A DNA stretch of 32,000 bases from an uncultured Methanosarcinales archaeon (GCA_964589485.1 CAZPRK010000002.1:453-32452); one strand, 5' to 3'; numbered from the stretch's first letter, positions 15,392-31,523 are shown. Numbers and translations: made by a program. Notes: a model not told the origin generated them from the letters alone.

Positions 15392-15436
15392 TAAGTAAGG
15401 AATAGGTTTATTCTTTATAAAAATAGTACCAAAAGC

Positions 15437-15444
15437 TTTATAAA
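15437..15444 (+). promoter_or_regulatory. TATA box of the 5S rRNA gene
   Basis: AAAGCTTTATAAATA places the TATA core about 23-30 nt upstream of the predicted 5S 5' end. Confidence 0.6.
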
Positions 15445-15466
15445 TAATCTCAGTTTTTTTACTTTT

Positions 15467-15580
15467 GGACGGTCATAGGGGCGTGGTTCACCTGTTCCCA
15501 TTTCGAACACAGAAGTTAAGAACGCCTCCGTTCAAGTGTGTACTGCACTTATGTGCGGGAAATCATGAAAGCTGTCCACC
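15467..15580 (+). rRNA. rrf: 5S ribosomal RNA
   Basis: The terminal helix pairs GGACGG with CTGTCC. The conserved CCCATTTCGAACACAGAAGTTAAG segment and a GTACTG...GGGAA loop-E region are present. It is a GC-rich island followed by a T5 run. Confidence 0.9.
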
Positions 15581-15585
15581 TTTTT
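15581..15585 (+). terminator. Oligo-T termination signal after the 5S rRNA
   Basis: TTTTT lies immediately after the closing helix of the 5S gene. This matches the archaeal oligo-T terminator type. Confidence 0.5.
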
Positions 15586-15627
15586 ATTCTAAAGTTATAT
15601 AAATGAAAAAACTTTCTACTAAAAATT

Positions 15628-16914
15628 ATGAAAATAACAGTAATAGGAGTAGGATATGTTGGATTAGTAACAGGAGCATGTTTTTCTGATTTAGGAAATG
15701 ATGTTATTTGTTTAGACGTTGATTCTTCTAAGATTGAAAATTTAAATAAAGGAATAATGCCTATATATGAACAAGGATTGAAAGATTTAGTTAATTTGAA
15801 TGTTCAACAAGAAAGGTTAACTTTTACAACTGATGTAAAATTTGCTATAGAAAATTCTGATGTTATTTTTATTGCAGTTGGTACTCCGCAAGATGAAGAA
15901 GGAAAAGCGGACTTAAAATATGTTAAAGAAGTTGCTAAAACTATTGGAACTTATATGAACACTTACAAAGTTATTGTAAATAAAAGTACAGTTCCAGTTG
16001 GAACTGGAGACTTAGTTAAATCTATAATTAAAAATGAAACAGATCATGAGTTTGATGTTGTAAGTAATCCTGAATTTTTAAAAGAAGGAGCTGCAATTAA
16101 AGATTTTATGACTCCAGATAGAGTTGTTTTGGGCGTTGAAAATGAAAAATCAAAAGAAATTATGTTACGGTTATACAAATCTTTGGAAAGAGTTGGAAAA
16201 CCAATTGTTTTAACTGACGTTAGAAGTGCAGAGTTAATTAAATATGCGTCAAATGCAATGCTTGCAACAAGAATATCTTTTATGAATGAATTATCAAGGT
16301 TATCTGAAAAAGTTAATGCTGATATTAAAAAAGTTGCAAGAGGTATAGGGTTAGATGATAGGATAGGACCTAGATTTTTACATGCAGGAGTTGGGTATGG
16401 AGGATCGTGTTTTCCGAAAGATATTCGAGCTTTAATTAACACTGGGAAAGAAAATCAAGTTAATTTGAAAATATTACAAGCAGTTGATGATGTTAATGAA
16501 GAACAAAAGAAAAGTATTGTTCCTAAAGTTTCAAAATTAGTTGGAGATTTATCTGGAAAAAAAATTGCAGTTTGGGGATTGGCATTTAAACCTAAGACTG
16601 ATGATGTAAGAGATGCTCCTGCTTTAGTTATTGTAAAAGAATTATTAGATAAAGGTTGTATAGTATTCGCTTTTGATCCAGTTGCTCAACATAATTTTTC
16701 TTCTTTGGTTTCAGGAGTAGAGTATGCAGAAAATCCTTACGATATTTTACAAGATGCAGATTGTTTGTTAATTTTAACAGAATGGGATTTGTTTAGAGAA
16801 CTTGACTTTGACAAAGTTAAAAGTTTAATGAAAAATCTTAATTTAGTAGATGGAAGAAACATATATGATCCCGAAGAAATGAAAGAATTTAATTATATTG
16901 GTGTAGGGAGATGA
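15628..16914 (+). CDS. ugd: UDP-glucose 6-dehydrogenase
   Basis: It has a Rossmann start (KITVIGVGYVGLVTGACFSDLGNDV), a catalytic GGSCFPKD and a C-terminal UDP-binding domain. TTATATAAAT lies about 30 nt upstream, so the mRNA is near-leaderless. Confidence 0.92.
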   Translation: MKITVIGVGYVGLVTGACFSDLGNDVICLDVDSSKIENLNKGIMPIYEQGLKDLVNLNVQQERLTFTTDVKFAIENSDVIFIAVGTPQDEEGKADLKYVKEVAKTIGTYMNTYKVIVNKSTVPVGTGDLVKSIIKNETDHEFDVVSNPEFLKEGAAIKDFMTPDRVVLGVENEKSKEIMLRLYKSLERVGKPIVLTDVRSAELIKYASNAMLATRISFMNELSRLSEKVNADIKKVARGIGLDDRIGPRFLHAGVGYGGSCFPKDIRALINTGKENQVNLKILQAVDDVNEEQKKSIVPKVSKLVGDLSGKKIAVWGLAFKPKTDDVRDAPALVIVKELLDKGCIVFAFDPVAQHNFSSLVSGVEYAENPYDILQDADCLLILTEWDLFRELDFDKVKSLMKNLNLVDGRNIYDPEEMKEFNYIGVGR

Positions 16915-17624
16915 AAGTAATTATTTTATGTGCAGGATATGCAACTAGACTTTATCCATTAACTATAGATAAACCTAAACCTTTACTTTCAGTTGGTGGA
17001 AAATTAATTATTGATTATATTTTAGATAAAGTAAAAGAAATAGATGTTTCCGATGTATTCGTAGTTACTAACGATAAATTTTATCCTTTGTTTAAAGAAT
17101 GGAATAATGATGTAAAAGTTATTAATGATAAAACTATTTCAAACGATGATAGATTAGGAGCAATAGGTGATATTCTTTATGTTATTGAAAATGAACATAT
17201 AGATGATGATGTTTTAGTTATAGCTGGAGATAATTTATTTGAATTTAGTTTACAGGAAATGCAAAATATGTTTAATGAAAAAGGAACTGTTGTTGCTTTC
17301 AGAGATGTTGGAGATAAAAATTTAATTGCAAACAAATTGGGAACAGCTGACCTTGATTCAAATAATAAAATAATTGAATTTTTAGAAAAACCTTCATTTC
17401 CAAAATCTACTTTAGCTGCAACTGCATGTTACATGTTTAAGAAAGAAGATTTAATTGAACTTAAAAAATGTATAGAAGAAAATAAAAAACCAGATAATTC
17501 TGGAGATTTTATTAAATATTTAATAAGTAAAAAGGATGTATATGCATTTGTGTTTAATGAGAAATGGTTTGATATTGGAAGTCATGATCAGTTAAAAGAA
17601 GCTGATGAATTTTATTCTGAATAA
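16911..17624 (+). CDS. Sugar-phosphate nucleotidyltransferase (glucose-1-phosphate NTP-transferase-like)
   Basis: It has the N-terminal motif ILCAGYATRLYPLTIDKPKPLL, a later GDNLF and WFDIGS. It overlaps ugd by 4 nt. Confidence 0.85.
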   Translation: MKVIILCAGYATRLYPLTIDKPKPLLSVGGKLIIDYILDKVKEIDVSDVFVVTNDKFYPLFKEWNNDVKVINDKTISNDDRLGAIGDILYVIENEHIDDDVLVIAGDNLFEFSLQEMQNMFNEKGTVVAFRDVGDKNLIANKLGTADLDSNNKIIEFLEKPSFPKSTLAATACYMFKKEDLIELKKCIEENKKPDNSGDFIKYLISKKDVYAFVFNEKWFDIGSHDQLKEADEFYSE

Positions 17625-17679
17625 AAATCCAAAACTATTTATATCATTTTAACTTAACTTTTTAAAACGGGGTGTTTTA

Positions 17680-18195
17680 ATGAGAAAATTAATATTATCT
17701 GTATTCTTTGTTTTAATTCTAGTTGTTTCTGTTTTCGGTTTTTTTTCTAATGTTCAAAAAGAGCAAGATTGTGTTGATATTGTACACGAAGAAGAAGTTA
17801 CTTCGGTATCAACATGTACTTCTGAACGAATAGTTAAAACTTGTGATGATACTAATACTACTTGTGATGAAATAACTGAATCTTTTCAACATAAATGTTT
17901 AAACACTTCAATAGTTAAAACAATAGAAAAAAAATGTGTAACTAAATCTTTAACTTTAGATAATCATAAAATTAATGTTGAAGGTTATGAATGTTCTGTT
18001 AATGATAATGTTGTAATTTGTGATTCTAAGTTTGATGGGAATGGAGACGGAATATGTACTTCTGGAGAAAGTTGTATGAAATTTGATTTTGATCAAGGAA
18101 GTTATACTCAGTATGAAAAGAATAGTAATTTGGATTTTGTTGAAAGTGATGAAAGTTTCTTTGTAGATAAAGCTTCAGTGGAGGTTTTAAAATGA
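17680..18195 (+). CDS. Small Cys-rich secreted or membrane-anchored protein, first gene of the toxin operon
   Basis: It has an N-terminal hydrophobic segment (LILSVFFVLILVVSVFGFF) and at least 14 Cys in 171 aa. GGGGTG lies before the ATG, and a TATA-like CTATTTATATC sits at about 17633-17643. I recognise no family. Confidence 0.65.
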   Translation: MRKLILSVFFVLILVVSVFGFFSNVQKEQDCVDIVHEEEVTSVSTCTSERIVKTCDDTNTTCDEITESFQHKCLNTSIVKTIEKKCVTKSLTLDNHKINVEGYECSVNDNVVICDSKFDGNGDGICTSGESCMKFDFDQGSYTQYEKNSNLDFVESDESFFVDKASVEVLK

Positions 18196-19910
18196 AAAGA
18201 TTAATTTTATTTTTATTATTACTTCCAATTGTAAGTGCATGGAACCTTCCAAGTGAAACTGATGGTTTTCATATGATTTTACCTTTAGATACTAATTTAT
18301 TAGATAGTGTTAGTAATAGTTCTACTGGTGGAAATTCTAATTGGAAACTTAATGCTGGAGCTACTAATTTTACTTCAATTTCTCGTGATGGGAACGGTGC
18401 TTACAGTATTCAAACTTCAAATGATAATACAATATATAATGATAGTAATTTTGATCAAGCATTTGCTAGTGGAGGAGCTATATGTTTTTCGGTTTATCCT
18501 CATGAGGATATTACTGTTGATGATACGATGATTTGGCAAAATCCAAATACTGGTGGTCAGTTTGATGGACATACTTCAATTGGATATAATGCAGTTTGGC
18601 CTTACAAATGGAGAAGGGAAGATAACCCTGGAGGATCCGGTGAAAAATCTATCACTATTCCATATAATGTAGAACTTGATGCTTGGAATTCTTTATGTTT
18701 AGTGTATAATAATAGTTACCATAAATTTTGGCTTAAGAATAATAATGGATCAGAATGGAGTGTTACGGATACAACTCAAAGTAGCGGTGCAGGGTTTGTT
18801 GGATCACATTCAGATTATTTAGGTAATACTTACCTTTATGGAAGTGCTGACGCCCCAGGAGATGTTGGAGTTAACGTTATCGTAGATGGTTTAGTTGGAT
18901 TTAAAATTTGGCCAGATGAACATTTATTAGAAAGTTATCATGCAGGAAATTGGACTATTGTTGATTCAAATGCTCCTGTGTTTTCATCAATAAATTGTAC
19001 ATCTTGTAATGATGCCGTTTCACCATACTCTAGTTCAAATTTATCTCCTTCATTTTATTTTGAAACAGATGTTAATGCAAATTGTAGAATTGCTAGTACA
19101 AATATAAATTATACTGCAATGGGAAGTTCAAAAAATTGTTATCAAGGTCAAGGTGAAAATACTCATACTTGTATTTTAACAGATGAATTAGATAGTGTTG
19201 TTGATTATGTGTATGCAGCATGTCAAAATAGTATTAGTTCTAATGAAAATTCAACAACTTTTTTGATGGACATAATTGCACCTCAAATTACAGCAATAAA
19301 TTGTACTTCATGTAACATTCCTAATGGTGATGTTGTTGCACCTTATACGACTTCAGATACAACTCCTACATTTACATTTAATACTGATGTTGGAAGTTAT
19401 TGTAGAGTTTCAGATTCAGCATTAAATTATTCAGTTTTAGGGGATTCTAGAAATTGTACAGGCGGACAAGGTGGAAGAAGTCATACTTGTAGTTTAACAG
19501 TTCAAGACGAATTAGTTTCTTCAACTGATAATATGTATGTGATTTGTGAAAATGGAGTAGTTGATAATGGGTATAGTACATTACAAATGGACATAACTAA
19601 CTTACAAGGTAATACTTCGAATGCAATTGAATGGGGAATTCAAAATAGTTCAATTTGGCCAAATGTTAAAATTTACACAAATCAACAAATTTATCTTCGT
19701 AATTTACAAAATCAACAAGTGTTGGCTACTGCCGATAAAGTTGCAGTTTATAAAAATCAAAGATGGATTTTAAATGTAGCTATTGATTCTGAAAGTAAAC
19801 TTGGATTGTTTAATTTAACGCCAGTTGTTTATGTTTTAGACATGGCTAACATTTCTATAACTGATATAAGGTCAAAAGTAAGTTCATTAATAACGGCTAC
19901 TGTAAAATGA
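18192..19910 (+). CDS. Secreted LamG/concanavalin-A-like lectin-fold protein with two Cys-containing repeat modules
   Basis: It has a signal peptide (MKRLILFLLLLPIVSA). The N-terminal 250 aa have a LamG_3-like pattern (LPLDTNLLDSVSN...GGAICFSVYP...WNSLCLVYNN). Two modules of about 102-107 aa start at INCTSCN. There are ATGA overlaps with both neighbouring genes. Confidence 0.6.
   Translation: MKRLILFLLLLPIVSAWNLPSETDGFHMILPLDTNLLDSVSNSSTGGNSNWKLNAGATNFTSISRDGNGAYSIQTSNDNTIYNDSNFDQAFASGGAICFSVYPHEDITVDDTMIWQNPNTGGQFDGHTSIGYNAVWPYKWRREDNPGGSGEKSITIPYNVELDAWNSLCLVYNNSYHKFWLKNNNGSEWSVTDTTQSSGAGFVGSHSDYLGNTYLYGSADAPGDVGVNVIVDGLVGFKIWPDEHLLESYHAGNWTIVDSNAPVFSSINCTSCNDAVSPYSSSNLSPSFYFETDVNANCRIASTNINYTAMGSSKNCYQGQGENTHTCILTDELDSVVDYVYAACQNSISSNENSTTFLMDIIAPQITAINCTSCNIPNGDVVAPYTTSDTTPTFTFNTDVGSYCRVSDSALNYSVLGDSRNCTGGQGGRSHTCSLTVQDELVSSTDNMYVICENGVVDNGYSTLQMDITNLQGNTSNAIEWGIQNSSIWPNVKIYTNQQIYLRNLQNQQVLATADKVAVYKNQRWILNVAIDSESKLGLFNLTPVVYVLDMANISITDIRSKVSSLITATVK
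18972..19598 (+). repeat. Tandem in-frame duplication (two units of about 306-320 nt) inside the LamG-like gene
   Basis: Unit 1 reads APVFSSINCTSCN..SPSFYFETDVNANCRIAS..NYTAMGSSKNCYQGQGENTHTCIL..FLMDII. Unit 2 reads APQITAINCTSCN..TPTFTFNTDVGSYCRVSD..NYSVLGDSRNCTGGQGGRSHTCSL..LQMDIT. Confidence 0.8.
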
Positions 19911-22900
19911 AATTAAAATTATTTTTTATGTTTTTGTTACTTGTTCAAGTTAGTTACGCGGCTAGTGAATATAGACCTTATTTACATGAAGCTGTAGTGC
20001 CAGAACATCCAGATGTAAAGTTATTTGGACAATATAGTACTAATTTATTTCCTGGAGCTGCAACTTATAGTTATGGTATAGAAGTTCCTAAAGGAGTAAA
20101 TGGTTTACAGCCTTTAATTTCTTTAAGTTATAATAGTCAATCAAATGATAAGTGGACTTTTACTTCAAGTTACATTTATAGAGATAGAAATAGTACTATT
20201 AGTGATGAAAGTGATGATGAGTTTATTTTAATTTTGGAAGGAGTTGCATATGAATTAAGGTATGATGGAAATTTTTGGCATACTGAAGTAGAATCTTATT
20301 TTAAAGTTGAAAATTATAGTAACCATTGGGTTTTGACTAAGAAAAATGGGAAAAAATATACGTTTGGAAATAATTCATTAATTTCTAATCATAGATGGTA
20401 TGTTGATCAAGTTACAGATTTACATGGAAATAATATTTATTATAATTATTTCTTAGATAATGGTACATTGAAAATATTAAACGTAAAATATAATAATGAT
20501 CAAACTAGAGAAATTAAATTTAATTATGAAGAAAAACCTAGACAAAGAGTTGTATATGATAATGGTTTAATAGTTCATGAAACAAAAAGAGTTAAAGATA
20601 TTTCTGTTTTTGCTCCTTCTTTAGTAAGAAGATATTCTTTTTCTTATACACAACTAAGTCCATTTATATCTTCACTTTCTTTAATTAAATATTTTGGAAG
20701 TGATAATAGTTCTATTTTACATAATATTAGTTTTGATTATTATATTTCTAATTTAGATATTGAAAATAGTACTGAAGATTGGGATGCACCTGAATCTTTT
20801 ACTAATGTGAATAATTATGATTTTGGGGTTAGGTTAGTTGATTTTAACCATGATGGATATGTTGATATGGTTCAAGGAAATCAAGATACTGAAACTAAAA
20901 ATGTTTGGATTAATAATAAAACAAAAGGATGGGTGAATTTAAGCACATGGAATGTTCCTGAATATTTTGTTCATACTGATAAAACAGATCAAGGAGTTAG
21001 ATTAATGGATATTAATAATGATGGATTTGTTGATACGATTAAAGCAAGAGATGGAGATAGAGTTGTTTATCTTAATAATAAAACTGGATGGAATTTGAGT
21101 AGTTGGGTAATGCCTTTAGATATTTTAAATTCTGTAGCAGAAGATATGGGTATTAGATTCGGAGATGTTAACGGAGATGGATTTATTGATTTTATTAGAG
21201 CAAAAGGTGGTAGTAGGAATGTTTATTTGAATAATAGAACTGGTTGGGTAGATTCATGGAATAATTTTCCTGCAGATTTTACAACTGCTGCTGGTAAGGA
21301 TAGTGGTTTAAGATTATTGGATGTAAATGGAGATGGATTGCCAGATCTTACTAAAAGTACTCCAACAAGTAGTAATACTTGGTTAAATAATGGATCAGGT
21401 TGGGAAAGTTATTCGAAATTTATATCTCCTGTTGCTTTTATAACTTCAGAAGATAAAGATAACGGAATAAGATTCTTAGATTTAAATAAAGATGGTTTAA
21501 TTGACTTTTGGGAGGGTCATGATACAACTTTGAAAGCTTATATAAATAACGGAACAGGTTGGATTGAAAATAATACTTGGGCTCCAAGAGAAGCTTTATT
21601 GTATAATAATGAGAATACAGGAAGAAGATTAGCCGATGTTAATGGAGATGGATTTGTTGATGTGATTATAAGTCATGATAATATTGGCAAGTATACTTAC
21701 TTGAGAAATTTTACACTTCCTTACTTATTAAAATCAATAACTAATGAATATGGAGGAAAGGTTGTAATAAATTATAGTACTTCTACTTCATTTAATAATT
21801 CTGAAAATGGATTTAGTGAACTTGGATTTAATTTATTTGTTGTAACTAATGTTACAATGAATGGGTCAGTTTCTTATAACTATTCTTTTGGAAAGTATAA
21901 TTATAATAAAAATGAATTTCGAGGTTTTGGGAAAAGTGTTGAAATAAAGCCTGGAAAAGTAATTAAACATTATTTTTATCAAGATGATCCTAGGAAAGGT
22001 AAAGAGTTTAAAACTGAAGTTTTTGGAAATAGTTTGTTATCAAAAAATGTTAAAGATTATAATTATACTTATAATGGAGTGTATAATGTAAGTTTAATTT
22101 TTTCTTCTGATTATATTTATGACGGTTTAGAAGTTCCTAAAGTTACAAATAAAACTTATGTTTATGATTCATTTCATAATTTAATTTCATTAAAAGATTT
22201 GGGAGATATTAATATAGAAGGAGATGAACATTATACTAATTATACTTATTCTACTAAAAATTGGATTTTAGATAGAATTGCCTCAGTTACTGAATTTGAT
22301 TCAGATAATAATAAAGTAAAACAAACTAAATATTTTTATGATAACTTAGGATTGAATGCATTAGGAAGTTTTGGAGATTTGACTAAAGTAGAAAAATGGT
22401 CTTCGAATAGTTCTTTTAATTATTTTGTATATGATAATTTTGGTAATTTGATTAGAGAAATTGATAGTCTCGGGGGAAGTACTAAATATGGTTATGGATT
22501 GTATAATACTTATTTAGCTTATTCAGTAAATCCTTTAGGACATATTACTTCTTTTGGATATGATTTGGGTACAGGTAACTTAATATTTCAAGAAAGTAAT
22601 GGAATTAATACTTCATTTGAATATGATGTTTTTGGTCGTATATTAAAAGAAATTAAACCTTATGATTCTTTACTTTTACCAACTAAGAACTATACTTATG
22701 TATTTGATGGGACTGTTCCTGAATTAGTTAAAGTTTCTTCAAGAACTACAAGTAATAAAAGTGATTCAATTTCTTATTATTATGACGGATATGGAAATTT
22801 AATTCAAATTAAAACAGATGTTGATTCAAGACAAATTGTAAAAAATATTTTTTATGATTCTGAATTTAGAGTTTTTTCAGAACAAAATCCTTATTTTTCT

Positions 22901-25240
22901 GCTAAAACTGAAAATTTATCTTCAATTTCAAATGATGCAAGAACATATTATACTTATGATGCTTTGGATAGAGTAATTGGTGTGTTGAATTCTGATTCTA
23001 CTTCTAAGAATGTTACTTTTTTACAATATAATATTACTGATTTTGATGAAAATAGTAATAAACATATTTATACATTAGATGGTCGTGGGAGAATTTCTAA
23101 AGTATATGAATTTAATTTGGGAGAAACTTATGTTACTTTTTATACGTATGATGGTAATGATAATTTAGTTTTAATTGTTGATAATGAAGGTAATGAATTC
23201 AGTTTTACTTATGATTCATTGAATCGTAAGGTTAGAATGAACGATCCAGATTTAGGAGAATGGAATTATTATTATGATGTTAATGGTAATTTGGTTAGGC
23301 AAGAAGATGCAAAAAATAATACTATTACTTTAAATTATGATTTATTGAATAGAATATTGCATAAAAATTCTTCTAATGTAAATATAACTTTCAATTACGA
23401 TAAAGATTATTTAGGAACTTTAAGTAATTTAACAATGGGAGACATTGTATTTAAGTATGAATATGATGATAGATTAAGGTTAGTAAAACAAATTCAAAAT
23501 TTGGAAGGAGTTGAAGTAACTAATGAATATCTTTATGATAGTCAAGATAGGTTAATTTCAGAAAATTCATTAGATTACATTTACAATTATCAAGGATTAG
23601 TTTCTTCAATTCCTGGGTATATTGATTCTTCTTTTTATAGTGCTTTCGGAACTATGCTTAATAGAAGTTATAATAATGGGTTATTACAAACTTTTAGTTA
23701 TATTGATGATAATAATAGATTAAAGTTAATTAATATTAACAATGTTCAAAATTTAAATTATACTTACGATAATGTTGGAAATATTTTGAAGATTGTAGAT
23801 TCAAATAAAAATCATATTTTAACTTATGATGGATTGGATAGATTAGTTACTGCAACAATTGGTTCTGATAATTACAGATATGCATATAATTCTATAGGAA
23901 ATATTATGAATCTAGTTAGTAATAATAATGCTAAGAAATTTATTTATTCATCAGGACATGCACCTGTTAAAATATTAGAAAATGTTTCCAGTGTTGATTT
24001 GTATAATCCAAAGGATACAAATTCAGGAAATAAAACCCGAACATTTAAGTTTAATTTAACTCAAGATACAAATATTAACAGTACAGCGAATTGGACAGTT
24101 TATTTTGGAGATGGTAGTAGTTCATCAGGTTCAACTACAGATTCTTTAGTAACTGTTCAGCATACTTATGCAAATGGGGGAACTTACGATGTTGGTTTTG
24201 TTACAGATTATGATGAACAAAATCTTTCTTTAACTTTTGGAGCAAGAGCTGAATCTTTAACTTTGGTTTCAAGTAATACTTCTACTAGATTATTTGAGTT
24301 AAAAATAACTAATGATATGTTAGAAAATGCATTAAATGTTGGTTGGAATTGCAGTTTGGGTTTAAGCTCTACTTCTTTGGTTAATTTATCTTCAGAGATG
24401 TATGTAAATATTACTGCAAACTTCACAACTCCTGGAAATAAATTGTTTAATTGTACAGTTACTTCAGATGATGGTAGTGAAAGTATTACTTTACCTTTAG
24501 AAGTTAAAGGATTAGAAGTTAAAGAGTATGATGTTTTATTAGAAAATAAATCTAAACGTATTGTGTCTTATAACTTAGTTAATCATTTTTCAACATTAAA
24601 TACTAACCTATCTCATAATATTGAAGGGTTTTCTACAACTGTAAATGTAAGTGATGATGTGATGGTGTTTGCAGAAGTAAATTATACTTCAGACGGACAT
24701 AATGAATTTATAATAACTTCAAATTATTCCACTGGATATGTGGATAGTTTTACTAAAGTTGGAGTTAGTATTGAGAATTTCTCAAGAGTAAATAATATAA
24801 TTAATATGATGTTATACAATTATTGGTATCCTGGAACTATTTATTTTAACATTAGCGAAGTAGATAACTCTACAACTGAAAATATACTTAAGTACAACAA
24901 AGAAGTTTCTAAAGATAGAGTTGAAGTTTCTGCATTTACTTCATCTTATGTTGATAAATTAATTAGTGTTTATTTAGGAAATCCTTTCCAAGTTTCATTA
25001 TTAACTTTACATGAAGGAGAAATAGTAGTAAATGAGTTAATTGTTGATAATGATCAAGGTCAGTTAATTGATTGGCAATTTAATACTGGAGTTGAAAATG
25101 TATTTTCTACAAATTCAGTAAATGATAGCGTAATGGTGTTTATAGAAAGTAATTATTCTATAGATGGAGTGTATAAAACTGTTGCAACTGTTAATAGTTC
25201 TTCTAATTCTAATAATGTTACTGGGGTGGTTGTTAAATGA
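19907..25240 (+). CDS. TcB/TcC-like RHS shell protein (SpvB N-domain, FG-GAP/VCBS propeller, YD repeats) with a C-terminal PKD/Ig-like region and no RHS core
   Basis: It has a signal peptide (MKLKLFFMFLLLVQVSYA) and an SpvB-type motif (GAATYSYGIEVPKGVNGLQPLISLSYNS). Six D.N.DG..D repeats span 20.83-21.67 kb (DFNHDGYVD, DINNDGFVD, DVNGDGFID, DVNGDGLPD, DLNKDGLID, DVNGDGFVD). It has a TcdB-mid-like ITNEYGG..NYS..FVVTNV and many YD repeats (YDNFGNLIREID, YDVFGRILKEI, YDGYGNLIQI, YDVNGNLVRQED, YDNVGNILKIVD, YDGLDRLV) up to about 23.92 kb. A PKD-like WTVYFGDGSSS...HTYANGGTYDV lies at about 24.09-24.21 kb, followed by repeated sequon-rich modules. Confidence 0.9.
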   Translation: MKLKLFFMFLLLVQVSYAASEYRPYLHEAVVPEHPDVKLFGQYSTNLFPGAATYSYGIEVPKGVNGLQPLISLSYNSQSNDKWTFTSSYIYRDRNSTISDESDDEFILILEGVAYELRYDGNFWHTEVESYFKVENYSNHWVLTKKNGKKYTFGNNSLISNHRWYVDQVTDLHGNNIYYNYFLDNGTLKILNVKYNNDQTREIKFNYEEKPRQRVVYDNGLIVHETKRVKDISVFAPSLVRRYSFSYTQLSPFISSLSLIKYFGSDNSSILHNISFDYYISNLDIENSTEDWDAPESFTNVNNYDFGVRLVDFNHDGYVDMVQGNQDTETKNVWINNKTKGWVNLSTWNVPEYFVHTDKTDQGVRLMDINNDGFVDTIKARDGDRVVYLNNKTGWNLSSWVMPLDILNSVAEDMGIRFGDVNGDGFIDFIRAKGGSRNVYLNNRTGWVDSWNNFPADFTTAAGKDSGLRLLDVNGDGLPDLTKSTPTSSNTWLNNGSGWESYSKFISPVAFITSEDKDNGIRFLDLNKDGLIDFWEGHDTTLKAYINNGTGWIENNTWAPREALLYNNENTGRRLADVNGDGFVDVIISHDNIGKYTYLRNFTLPYLLKSITNEYGGKVVINYSTSTSFNNSENGFSELGFNLFVVTNVTMNGSVSYNYSFGKYNYNKNEFRGFGKSVEIKPGKVIKHYFYQDDPRKGKEFKTEVFGNSLLSKNVKDYNYTYNGVYNVSLIFSSDYIYDGLEVPKVTNKTYVYDSFHNLISLKDLGDINIEGDEHYTNYTYSTKNWILDRIASVTEFDSDNNKVKQTKYFYDNLGLNALGSFGDLTKVEKWSSNSSFNYFVYDNFGNLIREIDSLGGSTKYGYGLYNTYLAYSVNPLGHITSFGYDLGTGNLIFQESNGINTSFEYDVFGRILKEIKPYDSLLLPTKNYTYVFDGTVPELVKVSSRTTSNKSDSISYYYDGYGNLIQIKTDVDSRQIVKNIFYDSEFRVFSEQNPYFSAKTENLSSISNDARTYYTYDALDRVIGVLNSDSTSKNVTFLQYNITDFDENSNKHIYTLDGRGRISKVYEFNLGETYVTFYTYDGNDNLVLIVDNEGNEFSFTYDSLNRKVRMNDPDLGEWNYYYDVNGNLVRQEDAKNNTITLNYDLLNRILHKNSSNVNITFNYDKDYLGTLSNLTMGDIVFKYEYDDRLRLVKQIQNLEGVEVTNEYLYDSQDRLISENSLDYIYNYQGLVSSIPGYIDSSFYSAFGTMLNRSYNNGLLQTFSYIDDNNRLKLININNVQNLNYTYDNVGNILKIVDSNKNHILTYDGLDRLVTATIGSDNYRYAYNSIGNIMNLVSNNNAKKFIYSSGHAPVKILENVSSVDLYNPKDTNSGNKTRTFKFNLTQDTNINSTANWTVYFGDGSSSSGSTTDSLVTVQHTYANGGTYDVGFVTDYDEQNLSLTFGARAESLTLVSSNTSTRLFELKITNDMLENALNVGWNCSLGLSSTSLVNLSSEMYVNITANFTTPGNKLFNCTVTSDDGSESITLPLEVKGLEVKEYDVLLENKSKRIVSYNLVNHFSTLNTNLSHNIEGFSTTVNVSDDVMVFAEVNYTSDGHNEFIITSNYSTGYVDSFTKVGVSIENFSRVNNIINMMLYNYWYPGTIYFNISEVDNSTTENILKYNKEVSKDRVEVSAFTSSYVDKLISVYLGNPFQVSLLTLHEGEIVVNELIVDNDQGQLIDWQFNTGVENVFSTNSVNDSVMVFIESNYSIDGVYKTVATVNSSSNSNNVTGVVVK

Positions 25241-26520
25241 AATCACTCCAAAGAATTGCTTTGCTTTTATCTATGCTTATGATATCTTTACCTATTGTAT
25301 TCTCATTAGAATTAACTTATGATGCGAATGGGAACTTAGTTACTGGTGATGGAAAATATAGAGAATATAATAGTTTGAATCAATTGTATAAAGTGTATAA
25401 TGGAAGTTCAGATGCAGGAACTTTATTACAGGAATATAAACATCATCCTACTGAGGAGAGAATTCTAGTTAAGAAAGAATATTTTGTTAACGGAAGTGTT
25501 AAGGAAAGAACTATTTATATTTCTAAAAGTTTAGTTAAGGTAATTAATAGTTCAGGTGAATTTGATTTTAATTATGTTTACCATAATGGTCAGTTGATAG
25601 CTCAAGAAATGAACGGAGATAAGAAGTTTATTCATGCAGATCATTTAGGAAGTAGTAGTGTTGTTACTGATAGTTCAGGCACAGTAATAGAGAATACTAC
25701 TTATTCTCCACATGGTGAAGTTGTATCGGGTGGAACTAAATCAAGATTCGGATACGAAGGCAAAGAGTTTGATTCTGTAGTAGGAGATACAGATTTCTAT
25801 TTTAGGAAATATAAACCTGAGTGGGGATTATTTACTCAACCTGATACTTTGATTCAGAACGTATACGACCCACAATCTCTAAACAGATACATGTTCGAGA
25901 GGGGTAACCCGTATAAGTATACTGATCCAAGCGGACATCAACCAGAATCTCCTGCGGGTGCAGTAGAAGAAGCAAATAAAGTAATAGCATCCTACCTTTA
26001 TGGTTTGGAAAGAAAAAGAATGGAGGAAGACAAACGTTATGAAAGATTATATGAGCTTTATCATGCTGAAAATCCAGAATTACCAAATAGTCCTTATGTT
26101 AATGTTTTAGTTTCAGCAGGGGGAAGCAGAACTATAGTTGAAAAACAAAGAAGAATAAGTTTAGGCATTCTTGAATCATGGAATTCTGTAAAATTAGATA
26201 AATTTGTTCAACAATCAAAAGTGATCCACATTGGCAATTCTTTAACTACTGCACAGCCTAAAATCTCTACTTCTTTAGATTCAGGAGGAAGTTCTTCAAG
26301 TGGATCATCTAGTGGAGGATTATTAAGTAAAATATGGAATTGGTTTACAGCAGGAGATGGAGATGATGGTTCTTCAAGTTCTTCTTCTTCATCAAGCAGT
26401 GGAAGTTCATCAAGTTCCTCTTCTAGTAGTAGTTCATCCAGCTCATCAGGAAGTTCATCCTCTTCAAGTGGAGGCGGATCCTCTGGAGATAGCAGTCCTT
26501 GGTGGTGTTTTTGGTGTTGA
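25237..26520 (+). CDS. RHS repeat-associated core protein with its own signal peptide, an unclassified C-terminal toxin region and a poly-Ser tail
   Basis: It has an N-terminal hydrophobic leader (IALLLSMLMISLPIVFS), a YD repeat (LTYDANGNLVTG) and core motifs (HADHLGSSSVVTDSSG..YSPHGE..FGYEGKEFDSVVGDTDFYFRKYKPEWGLFTQPDT..NRYMFERGNPYKYTDPSGH). The variable region after DPSGH starts at nt 25939. It has an ATGA overlap with the shell gene. Confidence 0.9.
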   Translation: MKSLQRIALLLSMLMISLPIVFSLELTYDANGNLVTGDGKYREYNSLNQLYKVYNGSSDAGTLLQEYKHHPTEERILVKKEYFVNGSVKERTIYISKSLVKVINSSGEFDFNYVYHNGQLIAQEMNGDKKFIHADHLGSSSVVTDSSGTVIENTTYSPHGEVVSGGTKSRFGYEGKEFDSVVGDTDFYFRKYKPEWGLFTQPDTLIQNVYDPQSLNRYMFERGNPYKYTDPSGHQPESPAGAVEEANKVIASYLYGLERKRMEEDKRYERLYELYHAENPELPNSPYVNVLVSAGGSRTIVEKQRRISLGILESWNSVKLDKFVQQSKVIHIGNSLTTAQPKISTSLDSGGSSSSGSSSGGLLSKIWNWFTAGDGDDGSSSSSSSSSSGSSSSSSSSSSSSSSSGSSSSSSGGGSSGDSSPWWCFWC

Positions 26521-26560
26521 CATTAATATTGGAAAAATTTAAAAATAATCAGGTGTTAAT

Positions 26561-27073
26561 ATGACTAATCAAATAAAAAAATTATTGATTCATCCTAAAA
26601 TGTTTTTTAGAGGTTTGAAAGAGGAAAAAAGCTATAAGAAAGCTTTAGTACCTTTCATCGTATTTTCTTTACTGATATATATATTTTGGTTTATTAAAAT
26701 TATATTACAAGTCAATAATACTCCTTTTTATTCAGGACCATCTTACTATGATTTTTTATTTGGAAACTTTGGTTTATTTTTTACCATCTATGCATTGGTC
26801 TTTTTGATTGCTGATATTATTATTTCACTTTTTTTCACGTTAGTAATAGTAGCTTTAGCTAAATTTATATGTTATTTAATAAAAGTAAAAATTTCTTTAA
26901 ATAAGATCTGGATTATATCAGTATATAGTTTAATTGCCTTTGTGTTGGCAAGTTTATTTCACTTTATAGCTTATTTTATCAACACTGCATTTTTAAAATA
27001 TGTTGGTTATGTATTCTACGCTTACTATCTCGTTCTTTTAATAATTGGAATTTTTGAGAATAGAGAAAAATAA
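26561..27073 (+). CDS. Multi-pass membrane protein, candidate immunity protein for toxin tip 1 (Yip1-like topology)
   Basis: It is 170 aa with 4-5 TM helices and starts 40 nt downstream of the toxin gene, the position expected for an RHS immunity gene. The family call is tentative. Confidence 0.55.
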   Translation: MTNQIKKLLIHPKMFFRGLKEEKSYKKALVPFIVFSLLIYIFWFIKIILQVNNTPFYSGPSYYDFLFGNFGLFFTIYALVFLIADIIISLFFTLVIVALAKFICYLIKVKISLNKIWIISVYSLIAFVLASLFHFIAYFINTAFLKYVGYVFYAYYLVLLIIGIFENREK

Positions 27074-27149
27074 TCCGTATAAGTATACAGGTCCAAGCGG
27101 ACATATAATTCCAGTACTAGCTCATCGAATTGAGTTTAGAAATGTTTAA
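27072..27149 (+). pseudogene. Remnant of an RHS core/toxin junction (NPYKYTGPSGH plus 14 codons)
   Basis: AATCCGTATAAGTATACAGGTCCAAGCGGACAT is near-identical to AACCCGTATAAGTATACTGATCCAAGCGGACAT at 25906-25938. It translates to NPYKYTGPSGHIIPVLAHRIEFRNV*. It has no start codon and begins at the immunity gene's stop codon. Confidence 0.8.
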
Positions 27150-27157
27150 ATAATACA

Positions 27158-27203
27158 TTTACGGTACGTAAAGTATAAAACTCAATTTTCCTTTTTTCTC
27201 GTC
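27158..27203 (+). repeat. Copy 1 of a 47-bp direct repeat containing TTTACG-GTA-CGTAAA
   Basis: TTTACGGTACGTAAA at 27158-27172 is identical to 29108-29122. A shared TTTTCTCGTC lies 36-37 nt downstream (27194-27203 and 29145-29154). The intervening sequence is about two-thirds similar and includes a TATA-like GTATAAAA. Confidence 0.8.
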
Positions 27204-27283
27204 ATAAATGGCTTTTTTAATTTCTAAAAAAACATGTTTTTTTCTATGGAATACTTTATATATTTTGAAGAAATTAGTTACTT

Positions 27284-28471
27284 ATGGAAGCTTTATATCC
27301 CGAATCAGTAAGACTTATCTCTAGTGATTTTTTTGGATTAAAGGAACTTAAAGGTATTAATGACGCAAATGGTAATTTATTACGAGATGGATCAGGCTTT
27401 CAAAGAGAGTACAATGGTTTAAATCAGTTGGTTAGAGTGCGTAATATTTCATCTAATATTGTTATACAAGAATATGTGCATGATCCATTTGAAGAAAGGA
27501 CTGTGATTAAGAAAATATATTTTAACAATGGAAGTCTGAAAGAGACTCACTTCTACTTTGATCGTGAATATGTAAGAATAACTAACAACACCGGAACATA
27601 CGATACAGAGTACGTCTTCATAGACAGTCAGCAAGTAGCAGAAGTTAAACATGATGGAGCTAAACAATATATACACACAGATCATTTAGGAAGTAGTAGT
27701 GTTGTTACTGATTCTAATGGAATAGTAATAGAGAATACTACTTATTCACCTCATGGAGAAGTATTAACAGGTGGAGAAGCAACTAGATTCGGATATGAAG
27801 GAAAAGAACATGATAGTGTAGTTGGAGATACTGATTTTCATTTCAGGAAGTACTGTTCAAGATTTGGTATATTCTGCCAACCAGATACAATAATACAAAA
27901 TGTATATGACCCACAATCTCTAAACAGATACATGTTTGAAAGAGGGAACCCGTACAATCAGATTGATCCTGATGGTCATTTACTGCCTTTATTATTCTGG
28001 GGTACATTTCTTATTGCTGCAGCGGTGGCAACAACAATTATTGCCATAGATAAATATCAAAAAGAGGACAATTCTGGTTTAGCAGAAACAGGTGTAACCC
28101 AAGCTGCTACAATAGTTTTTGAAAGTGTAGCACCTAAAGCAGCTGGCCCTGTTGGTGTAATATTAGGGAGTGCTTCAATAGCTGAGGGATTAGTTATTAC
28201 TTATGAAGATTTTACAAAAGATAAAGAAGGTGAAGAAAATACAGCTTCGCTTAAGATGAAAAAAATTACGTATATCGATGAAAATGGAAATCAAATACTT
28301 TTAACTGTGCCTGAAGAAACCAACAGATTATCAATCTCAACTGAGGGAGGTGGTATGACGAGGGCAGTTCCAGTTTATACAAGAAAAGATGGAAATGTTG
28401 TATGGGGTGACTCAAACAATGTTAATATTCCTGATGATGCTACTTCTATCGTAGATGATTTAGATAATTAA
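27284..28471 (+). CDS. Orphan RHS core protein with a second, different C-terminal toxin region (no signal peptide, no shell)
   Basis: It is homologous to 25237-26520 across the YD repeat and core (NDANGNLLRDG, HTDHLGSSSVVTDSNG..YSPHGE..FGYEGKEHDSVVGDTDFHFRKY..NRYMFERGNPYNQIDPDGH). The sequence after DPDGH (nt 27980 onward) is unrelated to tip 1 and begins with a TM helix (LLPLLFWGTFLIAAAVATTIIAI). Confidence 0.88.
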   Translation: MEALYPESVRLISSDFFGLKELKGINDANGNLLRDGSGFQREYNGLNQLVRVRNISSNIVIQEYVHDPFEERTVIKKIYFNNGSLKETHFYFDREYVRITNNTGTYDTEYVFIDSQQVAEVKHDGAKQYIHTDHLGSSSVVTDSNGIVIENTTYSPHGEVLTGGEATRFGYEGKEHDSVVGDTDFHFRKYCSRFGIFCQPDTIIQNVYDPQSLNRYMFERGNPYNQIDPDGHLLPLLFWGTFLIAAAVATTIIAIDKYQKEDNSGLAETGVTQAATIVFESVAPKAAGPVGVILGSASIAEGLVITYEDFTKDKEGEENTASLKMKKITYIDENGNQILLTVPEETNRLSISTEGGGMTRAVPVYTRKDGNVVWGDSNNVNIPDDATSIVDDLDN

Positions 28472-28512
28472 AATAGGTAAATTTATTAAATCTTGAAATA
28501 ATAAGGATAAAT

Positions 28513-28761
28513 ATGACACTAAATAAAAATGTTCAATGGTTAATTATTGCATTTGCACCGATATCTATTATATTTGCAGTTATTTTTAGTTATCCAATTA
28601 TTCTTACGCTATATTCTATTCTTATTTTATATTTGATAGGTAAATATGAGAATGAGTTTGTGCTTTGCCCAAAAAAATCAAAAGAGAAGTTTATATCAAA
28701 AGTATTTCTATATATTATAATTATATTCACAATTGCTATTCAAATATATATGTTGAGCTAA
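28513..28761 (+). CDS. Small two-TM protein, candidate immunity protein for toxin tip 2
   Basis: It is 82 aa with two hydrophobic helices separated by KYENEFVLCPKKSKEK. It starts 41 nt downstream of the orphan toxin gene. Confidence 0.5.
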   Translation: MTLNKNVQWLIIAFAPISIIFAVIFSYPIILTLYSILILYLIGKYENEFVLCPKKSKEKFISKVFLYIIIIFTIAIQIYMLS

Positions 28762-28787
28762 TTAACATGGCATTTATTAATAAATGT

Positions 28788-28801
28788 ATTTTACGTAAAA
28801 T
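28788..28801. repeat. Perfect 14-bp palindrome ATTTTACGTAAAAT
   Basis: It is self-complementary and shares the TTTACG/CGTAAA half-sites with the 47-bp repeats at 27158 and 29108. Confidence 0.7.
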
Positions 28802-28885
28802 ATATTGTATTATTTTATACGGTGACCAAATATAGTGAAACTTACTGTACTAACTTCGTCTATAAAATGCTTTTTACACCCACTT

Positions 28886-29092
28886 TTACTGGGTATTGAT
28901 TTTTAGCATTTTTTCAAGGTTTTTTTTCACTCCTTTTCTATGAGTGGCAAGTCCTAATTTCTTATACTTAGTTACTAAATTCTTATTTGAAACGATAAAC
29001 ATCCACCTATCTTTGTATTTTTTATTTAATGCTTTAACTTTATCACTACATTGTTTCCTCTTTTGCAATAAATTACCAGTTTCAATTTCCAA
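28886..29092 (-). CDS. Lys-rich small hypothetical protein (possible gene fragment)
   Basis: This 68-aa ORF starts at TTG, with the first ATG only at codon 31. Its composition is more protein-like than the overlapping plus-strand ORF. I recognise no motif. Confidence 0.3.
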   Translation of the reverse strand: MEIETGNLLQKRKQCSDKVKALNKKYKDRWMFIVSNKNLVTKYKKLGLATHRKGVKKNLEKMLKINTQ

Positions 29093-29107
29093 AGCATATA
29101 TTTTACT

Positions 29108-29154
29108 TTTACGGTACGTAAATTATACTCAGTGATAATTCTTATTTTCTCGTC
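29108..29154 (+). repeat. Copy 2 of the 47-bp direct repeat containing TTTACG-GTA-CGTAAA
   Basis: See copy 1. It lies in the gap between the small minus-strand ORF and the IS91-like gene. Confidence 0.8.
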
Positions 29155-29193
29155 TAAAGACAAATTTTTGAATTTTAAAAATGAGGTGATTTT

Positions 29194-29945
29194 ATGTTCT
29201 CTGTAAGGCAGATATTAAAGGACAACTGGGATAGGTATGTCCAAAGACACAATCCTAACAAATATCAGCGCCAAGTAGTGCGAGCTATGTTAAAATGTTC
29301 TAAATCAAGCTGCAACTCTAGGTTGTGCTCTTCTTGTGGAAAAAGATTCACCGATAGTTGGGCGAATTGGATTAAGGACTACTTATATGACATTAACCAT
29401 TTTCATGTACTTCTTACTATTCCAGCAATTTTAAGACCTAAGTTAAGAAAATGGAAAAATCTTAAAATCCTCATGGATTCGTCACGGGATTTTTTAGATC
29501 AATTTCTAGTGATAACTTTGGAATTATAGTAGTACTTCACACTTTTGGAAAAGACTTAAAGTTTAATCCACATCTTCATATTATATCAACAACCAGACTA
29601 AATGAAAGATTTAGCAGGATATGGAGAAAAATTGTTTTAGAAAACCTCCAAGCACCATCAAACAAATATTACTATGGATATTTTGTCTGGTCTGACAAAA
29701 GAAAATTAAATATCAGAAAGATATCTAAATATCTTGCTAGATATATAAGGCATCCTGTCATGGCTGATAAGAGAATTATTTTTTATAGGGGTGAAACCAT
29801 TCAATTCAAAGCAGGTCAGAATATTAAGAAAATGAAAACTGATGATTTCATAACAAGCTTAATTCAACATGTGCCGCCTAAACATTTTAGGCTGATAAGA
29901 CACTATGGAAGGTATAGAAGAAATTTTACGGATTACAATCCGTGA
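29194..29945 (+). pseudogene. IS91-family (Y2 HUH rolling-circle) transposase, frameshifted and shortened
   Basis: It has a zinc-binding N-domain (CSKSSCNSRLCSSCGKRFTDSW...HFHVLLTIP). After a stop at 29527-29529 the family motifs continue in another frame from about 29505 (GIIVVLHTFGKDLKFNPHLHIIST, YLARYIRHPVMADKRI, PPKHFRLIRHYGRY). The total of about 250 aa is shorter than I expect for an intact IS91-family transposase. Confidence 0.75.
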
Positions 29946-30095: not shown

Positions 30096-30425
30096 ATGGA
30101 TTATGTTCAATATGTTAAGAACAAATTAAAAATTTACAAAAAAGATGATATAAAAATTACAGCTCATGCTTTGATAAGGTTAGCACAAAGACAAATAGAT
30201 AAAAAAGAGATAATTCAGAATTTAATCAATCCAACACGTTTAGATTATGCGATAAAAGAAGAAGCAAATGTTCCAAGTGAAGAAAAATTCGATTGCTATT
30301 TCGGATATAGCAAAACACAATGTCATAGATATGTGATAATATTAAAAGAAAATGTAGTAGTGGTTACAGTTGTTAAACTTAATAGAAGGTGGCAAAAAAT
30401 TGCAGAAAAAAAGCTTAAGAGGTAA
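30096..30425 (+). CDS. DUF4258-family protein (predicted toxin-like small nuclease fold)
   Basis: It has the motif pattern ITAHALIRLAQRQIDKKEIIQNLINP...RYVIILKENVVVVTVVKL, typical of DUF4258. A TATA-like TTTATAAATT lies about 25 nt upstream. Confidence 0.65.
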   Translation: MDYVQYVKNKLKIYKKDDIKITAHALIRLAQRQIDKKEIIQNLINPTRLDYAIKEEANVPSEEKFDCYFGYSKTQCHRYVIILKENVVVVTVVKLNRRWQKIAEKKLKR

Positions 30426-30431
30426 GTAAAA

Positions 30432-30791
30432 ATGTGGAAAAAATTCAAATTTGATTATGATTTAGAAAATGATGATTTATTTTTATATGATAAAAAATCA
30501 AAATCTAAAGGAAGTATTGAAATAGATGACATTGTTATAGATTTTGATACAAATATGGCTGTTTCTGCAATTGAATTGATGAATGCTTCAAAATTTTTTA
30601 AAGATTTAAGTTTTGAAGGTTTAAATATAGATAAAGAAGTACTTAACAAAATTCAAGAATGTAAAGTTGAAATAATTCCCAAAAGCAATTTTTTTGTAAT
30701 TAAACTATTATTATTGCTGGAATCTAAACAAGAAATAAGAACACCAATTATTATTCCTACTGTGAGTGAACCAAGTCCTGCTGTTGTTTAA
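30432..30791 (+). CDS. DUF2283-family protein (partner of DUF4258)
   Basis: It has YDLENDDLFLYDKK...IVIDFDTNMAVSAIELMNASK, the DUF2283 signature pattern (YD.E.D.L.I...iDld..G.ivGIEil.AS). It starts 6 nt after the upstream gene. Confidence 0.65.
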   Translation: MWKKFKFDYDLENDDLFLYDKKSKSKGSIEIDDIVIDFDTNMAVSAIELMNASKFFKDLSFEGLNIDKEVLNKIQECKVEIIPKSNFFVIKLLLLLESKQEIRTPIIIPTVSEPSPAVV

Positions 30792-30986: not shown

Positions 30987-31523
30987 ATGATTGATTCAAG
31001 AAGTATAATTTTACAATATATAAAAGGTAAAGATGTTTTAGATATTGGAAGTTGCGGTAATCAAGGAAGTAATAATAAATTACCAACTCAATATGAAATG
31101 ATTAAACAAAACGCAAATTCTGTTCAAGGAGTTGACCTTGAAAGTAATATGCCGGAAATAATTAAAGGAAATGCAGAAACAATTAACTTGGACAAACAAT
31201 TTGATGTAATAACTGCAGGGGATGTTATTGAGCATTTGCATAATGTTGGTTTGTTTTTAGATAACATGAATAAACATTTAAAACAAGATGGAATTTTAAT
31301 TCTAGTTACGCCTAATGTTAAATCAATAGGTTATTTGCCATTTAGAGGAAATTTATTTCATACTTGTTGGTATTGTGAACATACTTTGAAATATATAGTA
31401 GAAAAGCATAACTTTAAGGTAGAAAAAGTTTACAAAGGATTAAGAAAAAGAAAATCCCCATTAAATGATTTTTTAAGAAATATATTTGCAAATAATTTAA
31501 TTTTTGTTTGTAGAAAAAATTAA
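30987..31523 (+). CDS. Class I SAM-dependent methyltransferase
   Basis: It has motif I (VLDIGSCGNQG), a DVITAGDVIEHL motif and GILILVTPN. Confidence 0.75.
   Translation: MIDSRSIILQYIKGKDVLDIGSCGNQGSNNKLPTQYEMIKQNANSVQGVDLESNMPEIIKGNAETINLDKQFDVITAGDVIEHLHNVGLFLDNMNKHLKQDGILILVTPNVKSIGYLPFRGNLFHTCWYCEHTLKYIVEKHNFKVEKVYKGLRKRKSPLNDFLRNIFANNLIFVCRKN

Follow-up and report, generated by a model that had tools for sequence, protein, structure and literature searches.

The 32,000-nucleotide stretch of archaeal DNA analysed here, hereafter the window (GCA_964589485.1 CAZPRK010000002.1:453-32452, deposited under an uncultured Methanosarcinales archaeon), carries seven co-directional open reading frames (ORFs) between positions 17680 and 28761, encoding proteins of 171, 572, 1777, 427, 170, 395 and 82 amino acids (aa). 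We consider that they probably form a resident operon for a two-piece RHS "cocoon" homologous to the TcB-TcC pair of bacterial insecticidal Tc toxins, in which the toxin tips would be exchangeable and membrane proteins would confer immunity. Among known systems, the locus is a DPANN variant of the SpvB/propeller/RHS ("TcdB/TcaC") class of polymorphic toxins. The two central proteins are the 1777-aa TcB-like subunit (B, 19907-25240) and the 427-aa TcC-like subunit (C, 25237-26520), both on the plus strand, as are the other parts of the locus (17638-29945). A previous inspection of the nucleotide sequence by itself (the sequence-only reading) had proposed a TcB-like and TcC-like toxin operon with immunity candidates, and profile searches with hidden Markov models, PDB sequence matches and predicted structures all agree with this proposal. 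It had described five genes, whose coordinates proved exact, but the same range holds two further ones, encoding the 395-aa and 82-aa proteins.

B begins with MKLKLFFMFLLLVQVSYA, a Sec-type signal peptide (residues 1-18), followed by an SpvB-like N-domain (~20-285), a six-bladed FG-GAP propeller (~290-600), a TcdB_midN segment (561-693), an RHS/YD shell (~700-1345) and a PKD/immunoglobulin (Ig)-like C-terminal region of ~430 aa (1346-1777). In Pfam, five FG-GAP_3 stretches, PKD_4, RHS_repeat (2e-26) and TcdB_toxin_midN (59.3 bits for a cutoff of 24.8) were detected, and NCBIfam returned YD_repeat_2x. Six blade motifs of the form D-x-G-x-R-[LF]-x-D-x-N-x-DG lie at residues 305-585. Among PDB sequences, B matched TcdB1 and YenB over residues 226-638 and Rhs proteins in its repeats. 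Residues 1-1200 were modelled with AlphaFold2 from an alignment of 79 sequences, and the model reached a predicted local distance difference test (pLDDT) of 88.8 and a predicted TM-score (pTM) of 0.85; its residues 600-1200 are all-beta, with a pLDDT of about 90. Foldseek placed this model nearest to TcdB2-TccC3 (query-normalised TM-score, TMq, 0.70-0.79, E down to 1e-51), followed by TcdB1 and YenB (TMq 0.65-0.70), with T6SS (type VI secretion system) Rhs proteins at 0.23-0.32 and teneurins at 0.12-0.22. Prediction of the 1777-aa protein alone, which the sequence-only reading had put forward as a check, thus gave a TcB fold for the modelled part (TMq 0.79 to TcdB2-TccC3). Going by this model, the fold of B, with its N-domain, six-bladed propeller and YD shell, makes it a TcB homolog and more than an RHS protein.

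C starts with MKSLQRIALLLSMLMISLPIVFS, also a Sec-type signal peptide (residues 1-23), and continues with the last YD-shell repeats (~25-155), an Rhs core (156-234) and a tip (235-427). The Rhs_assc_core profile TIGR03696 (NCBIfam, cutoff 32.5) matched C with 52 bits and the 395-aa protein with 50 bits, so the RHS-core/toxin protein expected by the sequence-only reading is present. When the core was aligned to residues 599-692 of YenC2, R190, D203 and D230 fell opposite R650, D663 and D686, which we take to be the catalytic residues of YenC2. H234 fell opposite M690, with which the crystallised YenC2 chain ends. Titles of PDB entries agree on two cleaving aspartates spaced by ~22-23 residues (TccC3-D651A; Tse15 D1369N/D1391N, "toxin cleavage mutant"). 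Across 114 aligned relatives, R190 and D203 never vary, and at least 90% conservation is seen for D230 and H234. Judged from these alignments, C is TcC-like, with intact R/D/D autoprotease residues in its core, and cleavage is predicted after DPSGH234.

The 395-aa protein (27284-28471) has no signal peptide. It consists of a shell end, an Rhs core (154-232, ending in DPDGH) and a tip that opens with a transmembrane (TM)-like helix. It is about 65% identical to C from residue ~29 to the DP(S/D)GH motif (233 in C, 231 in the 395-aa protein), after which the two proteins are unrelated. The 395-aa gene is a classical orphan cassette. Its tip, which has weak Saf_2TM similarity (E 0.02), is of the type carried by the primary C-like gene of L008, a metagenome-assembled genome (MAG) of Woesearchaeota.

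B has more than 1357 relatives in databases. Those with names (about 20) are overwhelmingly labelled Woesearchaeota, Pacearchaeota, Nanoarchaeota, Micrarchaeota or Altiarchaeota, with two bacterial labels (Poribacteria and Ignavibacteria), and some entries are already called "toxin TcdB middle/N-terminal domain-containing protein" or are named after RHS core or VCBS domains. The 120 best relatives of B were classified by architecture. About 50, including the window's B, are split: B ends in the ~430-aa PKD/Ig region and lacks a core. Another 33 are fused, running as B up to the equivalent of residue ~1132 (YDVNGNLV) and then directly into a segment equivalent to C 25-234 and a tip. Stand-alone C proteins begin, after the signal peptide, at YDANGNL, which is the fusion-point motif of the fused relatives. 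Within 121 C-like sequences (119 relatives and the two from the window), 92 have a hydrophobic Sec-type N-terminus, and these signal peptides typically end in ...FA or ...HA just ahead of (E)LNLxYDANGNL. Since both B and C have Sec-type signal peptides, they would be exported separately. We rejected a programmed frameshift joining B to C, given the conserved signal peptide of C and the Ig tail that B retains in ~50 relatives. We also discarded the idea that B 1132-1345 is a paralog of the C N-terminus, the similarity being at the level of the repeats only (E 0.2).

The reference systems for this arrangement are TcdB2-TccC3 of Photorhabdus (4O9X, 6H6F) and YenB-YenC2 of Yersinia entomophaga (4IGL). 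The locus shares with them the predicted fold of B residues 1-1200 (TMq 0.65-0.79), a six-bladed FG-GAP propeller, TcdB_midN, an RHS shell distributed over two polypeptides from adjacent genes, and a C subunit ending in an Rhs core with an R/D/D aspartyl autoprotease and a hypervariable tip. In contrast to these systems, it has no nearby TcA partner, both subunits carry Sec signal peptides, and a conserved lectin/Ig accessory gene lies upstream. C is also very short compared with TcC (~210 aa of shell and core versus ~680 aa), and B differs from TcB by its ~430-aa PKD/Ig extension. Moreover, unlike insecticidal Tc loci, this one is followed by immunity genes and orphan cassettes, which are typical of interbacterial Rhs systems.

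A classical ABC Tc toxin directed against eukaryotes, with its TcA injector encoded elsewhere in the genome, would compete with our interpretation. The nearest folds of B belong to TcdB2, TcdB1 and YenB, which dock on TcA, and B contains TcdB_toxin_midN. However, the sequence-only reading had already remarked that a TcA-like component was missing, and no TcA-type domain was found in the ORFs of the 32-kb window, or in the genes called up to 7-8 kb from the B-like gene of the six loci L007-L012. Moreover, TcB and TcC lack the Sec signal peptides that B and C both have, and the conserved upstream gene encodes a small lectin/Ig protein that is structurally unlike TcA. We therefore regard an ABC toxin as very improbable.

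T6SS Rhs effectors (RhsA, Tse5, RhsP and Tse15) resemble the locus in their YD shell, core autoproteolysis and polymorphic tip with immunity, as well as in their orphan cassettes and displaced-tip scars. Some T6SS Rhs toxins, such as Tse5, are membrane-active and have membrane immunity proteins. However, PAAR, VgrG or T6SS domains were not found in the window proteins, B has a TcB-type propeller plug in place of the N-terminal PAAR/plug, and its TMq to T6SS Rhs proteins is low, as given above. Teneurins are also distant by TM-score. The TEN_YD-shell profile scored 23.8 and 22.6 bits in window proteins, below its cutoff of 50, and the propeller of B is of the FG-GAP rather than the NHL type.

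This TEN_YD-shell similarity nevertheless belongs to a further explanation, in which B is a teneurin-like adhesion or surface protein without a toxin role and the C-like genes are decaying remnants. It would suit a B that lacks a core or toxin of its own and ends in PKD/Ig domains, and tips without a known toxin domain. But the C-like genes are intact and translationally coupled through ATGA overlaps, the signal peptide of C is conserved, and the R/D catalytic pair is invariant across the 114 relatives. The pairing of tip and immunity gene in a related locus, described below, argues for selection on toxic activity. A pure adhesion role is thus improbable, if somewhat less so than an ABC toxin.

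The tips form the most variable part of the system. From the 114 stand-alone C-like proteins, 113 tips of at least 40 aa fell into 83 BLAST clusters. A TM-like 19-mer is present in 62 of the 114 tips, and in 59 of these 62 it lies within 30 residues of the cleavage site. The tip of C (235-427) has only 9 relatives among 1.84 billion representative sequences and finishes with a poly-Ser tail ending in PWWCFWC. This tail, at window positions 26290-26520, comprises a Ser/Gly tract of ~50 residues followed by PWWCFWC. Contig L002 (13982-15157) encodes a 391-aa variant of C in which residues 1-375 are unchanged and all differences follow, in the region of the Ser tract; they may reflect a polymorphism in length or an error of assembly. 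Several relatives of C (P0185, P0215, P0245, P0249, P0255, P0258 and P0268) are 600-700 aa long and carry, in addition, LamG_3 or jelly-roll domains of the clostridial-neurotoxin receptor-binding type. In these proteins, the C unit itself is sometimes fused to the lectin module.

The gene following C (26561-27073) encodes the 170-aa protein, which matches Pfam Yip1 at 2.3e-8 and has five TM-like segments, in agreement with the membrane immunity candidate of the sequence-only reading. In L010, a MAG labelled Methanosarcinales, the tip of C and the Yip1-like gene recur together as an orphan pair, with 58% and 50% identity, respectively. This co-occurrence is the strongest indication at hand that the tip and the 170-aa protein, its immunity candidate, are a cognate toxin-immunity pair. 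In the relatives, the genes 3' of C-like genes mostly encode multi-TM proteins. The last gene of the operon (28513-28761) encodes the 82-aa protein with three TM-like segments, for which no homolog was found in L007-L010.

Traces of cassette turnover are visible around these genes. Right after the Yip1 gene, 34 nt (27071-27104) are 91% identical to the end of the core of C (25905-25938). They belong to a relic of an Rhs-core 3' end (27072-27149) that encodes NPYKYTGPSGH, in which the catalytic Asp has become Gly, and a 14-codon stub. This relic is a recombination scar, as expected when a new tip and immunity cassette displaces an old one via the conserved core. In addition, a direct repeat of ~77 nt flanks the module of the 395-aa and 82-aa genes (27154-27230 and 29104-29181; local alignment score of 60, for a shuffle maximum of 32). 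Within both copies, the exact 15-mer TTTACGGTACGTAAA occurs at 27158 and 29108, with a chance expectation of 0.05. The second copy lies directly upstream of a fragmented IS91-family transposase (29194-29945, with Zn_Tnp_IS91 at 29194-29529 and Y2_Tnp at 29760-29945) that borders the locus, and, given this proximity, capture or transfer of the orphan cassette by an IS91-type element may be suspected. Two other contigs, L003 and L004, both end at the position equal to window 25368, ~130 nt into the C-like gene, and such breaks are expected if the population has alternative C cassettes. In L009 (archaeon GW2011_AR15, CP010425.1), the C-terminal part of B is present once more, as a partial copy (14704-16431; RHS end and Ig region, 39% identity over 582 aa) directly before a second C-like gene; therefore cassettes can include the tail of B.

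Upstream of B, two genes encode accessory proteins. In the secreted 572-aa protein (18192-19910), an N-terminal part of ~250 aa is followed by two Ig-like repeats that contain Cys (~262-361 and ~364-468) and by a C-terminal domain (~471-572). The latter ~100 aa are kept upstream of the B-like gene in all six related loci (L007-L012, 35-58% identity), in split as well as fused relatives. The protein and its relatives share only their C-terminal ~200 aa (36-40% of the length); the N-terminal parts vary and include LamG_3, Laminin_G_2 or F5/8-C (discoidin) lectin domains. In the AlphaFold2 model, residues 360-572 had a pLDDT of about 90 and formed an Ig-like domain and an alpha/beta domain. The N-terminus had a pLDDT below 50, because the relatives share only the C-terminal part. 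With Foldseek, the C-terminal half gave only generic Ig-like matches and no PDB neighbour, TcA included, at E<=0.001. A likeness of this domain to the TcB-binding domain of TcA was thus considered but found no support. The sequence-only reading had described the 572-aa protein as LamG-like, an identity which could not be verified: the N-terminus had no Pfam match at E<5, and when the N-terminal 260 aa were compared by hhalign with relatives that carry LamG, the probability was only 39%, for a match lying over the signal peptide. "LamG-like" is thus to be taken as a positional analogy with the relatives. The first gene of the operon (17680-18195) encodes the 171-aa protein, with 10 Cys and an N-terminal hydrophobic segment, which is putatively secreted or anchored. 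It has no Pfam match, and counterparts are found at the same position in L010 (35% identity) and L007 (37% identity).

The toxin operon belongs to the genome in which it was found. RadA (4110-5183) matches archaeal RadA (Pyrococcus 1PZN, 2e-108; Methanococcus 1T4G, 8.5e-100) better than eukaryotic Rad51, and the same contig encodes an AAA_18 (Fap7-type) protein, NFACT_N and a stand-alone 5S rRNA. The archaeal informational genes noted previously were thus found again. The GC content per kb remains between 0.22 and 0.33 throughout the window, with no step at the toxin locus. The 572-aa and 1777-aa proteins contain 3.0-3.5 N-x-S/T sequons per 100 aa, an unrelated secreted protein (1249-2247) contains 4.2 and cytoplasmic proteins ~0.7, so the AT-richness and sequon-rich secreted style are shared with the rest of the contig, as had been claimed.

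One could suspect a binning error, or a chimera of bacterial and archaeal DNA, from the two bacterial labels among the ~20 named relatives and from bacterial-looking genes just upstream (PagL-like, pABA/folate operon; described below). However, an identical B is encoded by nine contigs of the JGI, ENA and Logan assemblies, and the junction at 17.6 kb is crossed by five of the six contigs fetched, from five samples and three pipelines, which are collinear with the window at 99.86-100% identity; one of them, L002, is from a slightly different strain. Because these five contigs were obtained independently, the toxin locus is not chimeric. The uniform GC content speaks against a chimera as well. 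Moreover, the order accessory gene, B, C, small membrane genes and orphan C cassettes is found on CP010425.1 (1.16 Mb, archaeon GW2011_AR15), and syntenic operons are carried by MAG contigs of 230-790 kb, so that a survey of related archaeal MAGs did reveal the locus elsewhere, on long DPANN-labelled records. When genome contigs were scanned with the B protein, a single locus, L010, was returned (45% identity). A chimeric origin is thus hardly credible. With the domains recovered and the junction crossed, the sequence-only reading of a resident toxin operon therefore stands, and we conclude that it is probably a resident polymorphic-toxin locus of an AT-rich, tiny-genome, DPANN-type archaeon.

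A mechanism can be proposed for the two-piece cocoon. B and C would be exported separately and assembled outside the cell into a closed shell. We infer this joining from the mature N-terminus of C (YDANGNL...), which resumes the shell exactly where the fused relatives run on. The Rhs core would then cut off the tip, which would be retained inside the shell. The conserved C-terminal domain of the accessory lectin/Ig protein may serve for docking, and this protein and the PKD/Ig tail of B would jointly direct the cocoon to a neighbouring cell. Once released, the tip would act on the cytoplasmic membrane of a target that has no outer membrane; for such a membrane-acting tip, a TcA-type injector would therefore not be needed. 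The multi-TM proteins encoded after each tip would protect the producer, and orphan cassettes would permit toxin switching by recombination in the conserved core.

Several points weigh against the cocoon and its proposed mechanism. Bacterial TcB and TcC have no signal peptides and are assembled in the cytoplasm, and we know of no precedent for extracellular assembly of a cocoon around an unfolded tip. Besides, B has ~210 aa of RHS (residues 1132-1345) in excess of the fused relatives, and for this reason the way in which C completes the shell is not evident. Of the profiles that the sequence-only reading had suggested for a search, FG-GAP, TcdB_toxin_midN, RHS and PKD were recovered in B, as were the six blades. 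SpvB (PF03534), which most close relatives of B carry, scored 19.8 bits (E 5e-4, residues 114-219) when the N-terminal 260 aa were scanned alone, under its 22-bit cutoff, although the predicted fold of B aligns globally with TcdB2, and TcdB_toxin_midC (PF12255) was not found in B by Pfam at E<0.01. None of the tips of the 114 relatives matches a Pfam family besides LamG-type lectin domains (E<1e-3), and toxicity is consequently deduced from architecture only. Neither the tip of C nor that of the 395-aa protein has such a match or could be assigned to a known toxin family. The 82-aa protein is an immunity candidate for the 395-aa tip by position only. Finally, according to a passage of a 2021 paper, no polymorphic toxin system of any archaeon had been experimentally characterised as of then.

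The main rival to a toxin is a host-interaction device. A DPANN episymbiont would insert membrane effectors into the membrane of its host, forming pores or bridges for the uptake of lipids and metabolites, and the immunity proteins would shield the symbiont. The high frequency of TM-like helices in the tips, most of them close to the cleavage site, would suit such a device, as would multi-TM immunity candidates. The accessory lectin-type domains vary among relatives, as expected for recognition of host surfaces, and the family is concentrated in DPANN-labelled records. However, the combination of hypervariable tips with orphan cassettes and cognate immunity pairs is characteristic of antagonism among close relatives, and not of a conserved function in access to a host. 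We therefore consider a host device unlikely, although it deserves more weight than any other rival discussed here.

Beyond the resident cocoon operon, a bolder and more specific version of the toxin hypothesis can be formulated: an "A-less" Tc-like machine in DPANN, in which B and C, each exported by Sec, would form the cocoon outside the cell, the accessory protein (with its variable lectin head, Ig repeats and a novel docking domain of ~100 aa at the C-terminus) would replace TcA for targeting, and a large repertoire of uncatalogued, self-inserting membrane effectors would be directed against host or rival archaea. We regard this version as possible but doubtful. If true, RHS cocoons would have a delivery logic that is new, and the contacts of DPANN archaea with hosts or with one another would gain a candidate molecular basis.

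The class to which the locus belongs is not new. The "TcdB/TcaC" polymorphic toxins were defined by a signal peptide, SpvB, an integrin-like propeller and RHS, without TcA, and Euryarchaeota are listed for them in Table 1 of the same article (Zhang et al. 2012, Biol Direct 7:18, PMC3482391). The window agrees with this defining layout, with the variable C-terminal toxin and with the downstream immunity genes and cassettes; the fused (Class II) relatives of B fit it exactly. The window departs from the class in that its toxin end is carried by another protein, secreted on its own, and B finishes with Ig/PKD domains; the organism is of DPANN type, and none of the tips matches the toxin domains catalogued in Pfam. 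The locus also resembles the contact-dependent archaeal toxin systems with RHS/YD features that Makarova et al. (2019, mBio 10:e00715-19) are reported to have predicted. As summarised in later citing work, they proposed polymorphic toxin systems for many archaea and noted RHS/YD features in a bacterium's homologs of halocin C8. Our literature searches returned no paper on this DPANN B/C family, which did not cover Makarova et al. 2019 or Ruhe et al. 2020.

The sequence-only reading thus overstated the novelty of the locus, given a class defined in 2012, with Euryarchaeota listed, and more than 1300 database relatives. Since RHS polymorphic toxins of the SpvB/propeller class, including archaeal ones, are already in the literature, the present findings refine and extend this knowledge and do not overturn it. 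The locus stands out by its split B/C pair with Sec export of both members, by the Ig/PKD tail of B, by the C-terminal domain conserved in the accessory protein, and by its uncatalogued, largely membrane-type tips. The contacts of DPANN with hosts and rivals are largely uncharted, and the locus is a compact, well-delimited example of the family: a predicted TcB/TcC encapsulation device without a TcA injector, both halves of which are apparently Sec-exported, associated with roughly 80 or more unrelated, uncatalogued tip families and membrane-type immunity candidates. It also offers concrete constructs for tests of autoproteolysis, assembly, targeting and toxicity.

The start region and gene junctions are as the sequence-only reading described them. 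A TATA-like TTTATATC (17638-17645) and a Shine-Dalgarno-like GGGGTG (17669-17674) can be read before the ATG at 17680 and form a putative operon start region (17638-17674). The ATGA stop/start overlaps at 18192, 19907 and 25237 were all seen, and all three read AAAATGAAA. A scan of the locus for sigma-70 promoters and terminators gave the same result as shuffled sequences, sigma-70 being the wrong model for archaea.

Some neighbouring genes have a bacterial style. Next to the 5S rRNA gene, on the minus strand, lies a 182-aa PagL-like ORF (14843-15391; PF09411, E 4e-11). PagL is a lipid A 3-O-deacylase, of an outer-membrane beta-barrel family, and the match is odd here because archaea have no lipid A. 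A bacterial-style para-aminobenzoate (pABA)/folate operon at 10688-14869 encodes a PabB-like chorismate-binding protein, a glutamine amidotransferase (GATase), a class IV aminotransferase, a pterin-binding FolP and a FolB-HPPK fusion, and was probably acquired horizontally. On both sides of the locus (15628-17624 and 30987-31903), and in L011 and L012, the toxin operons stand among sugar-nucleotide, glycosyltransferase, methyltransferase and sulfotransferase genes, which suggests that the operon sits in a variable cell-surface island. Just downstream of the IS91 fragments, a DUF4258/DUF2283 gene pair (30096-30791) forms a putative toxin-antitoxin-like module, and a DUF772/DDE_Tnp_4 transposase (32-919) is found at the left edge of the window.

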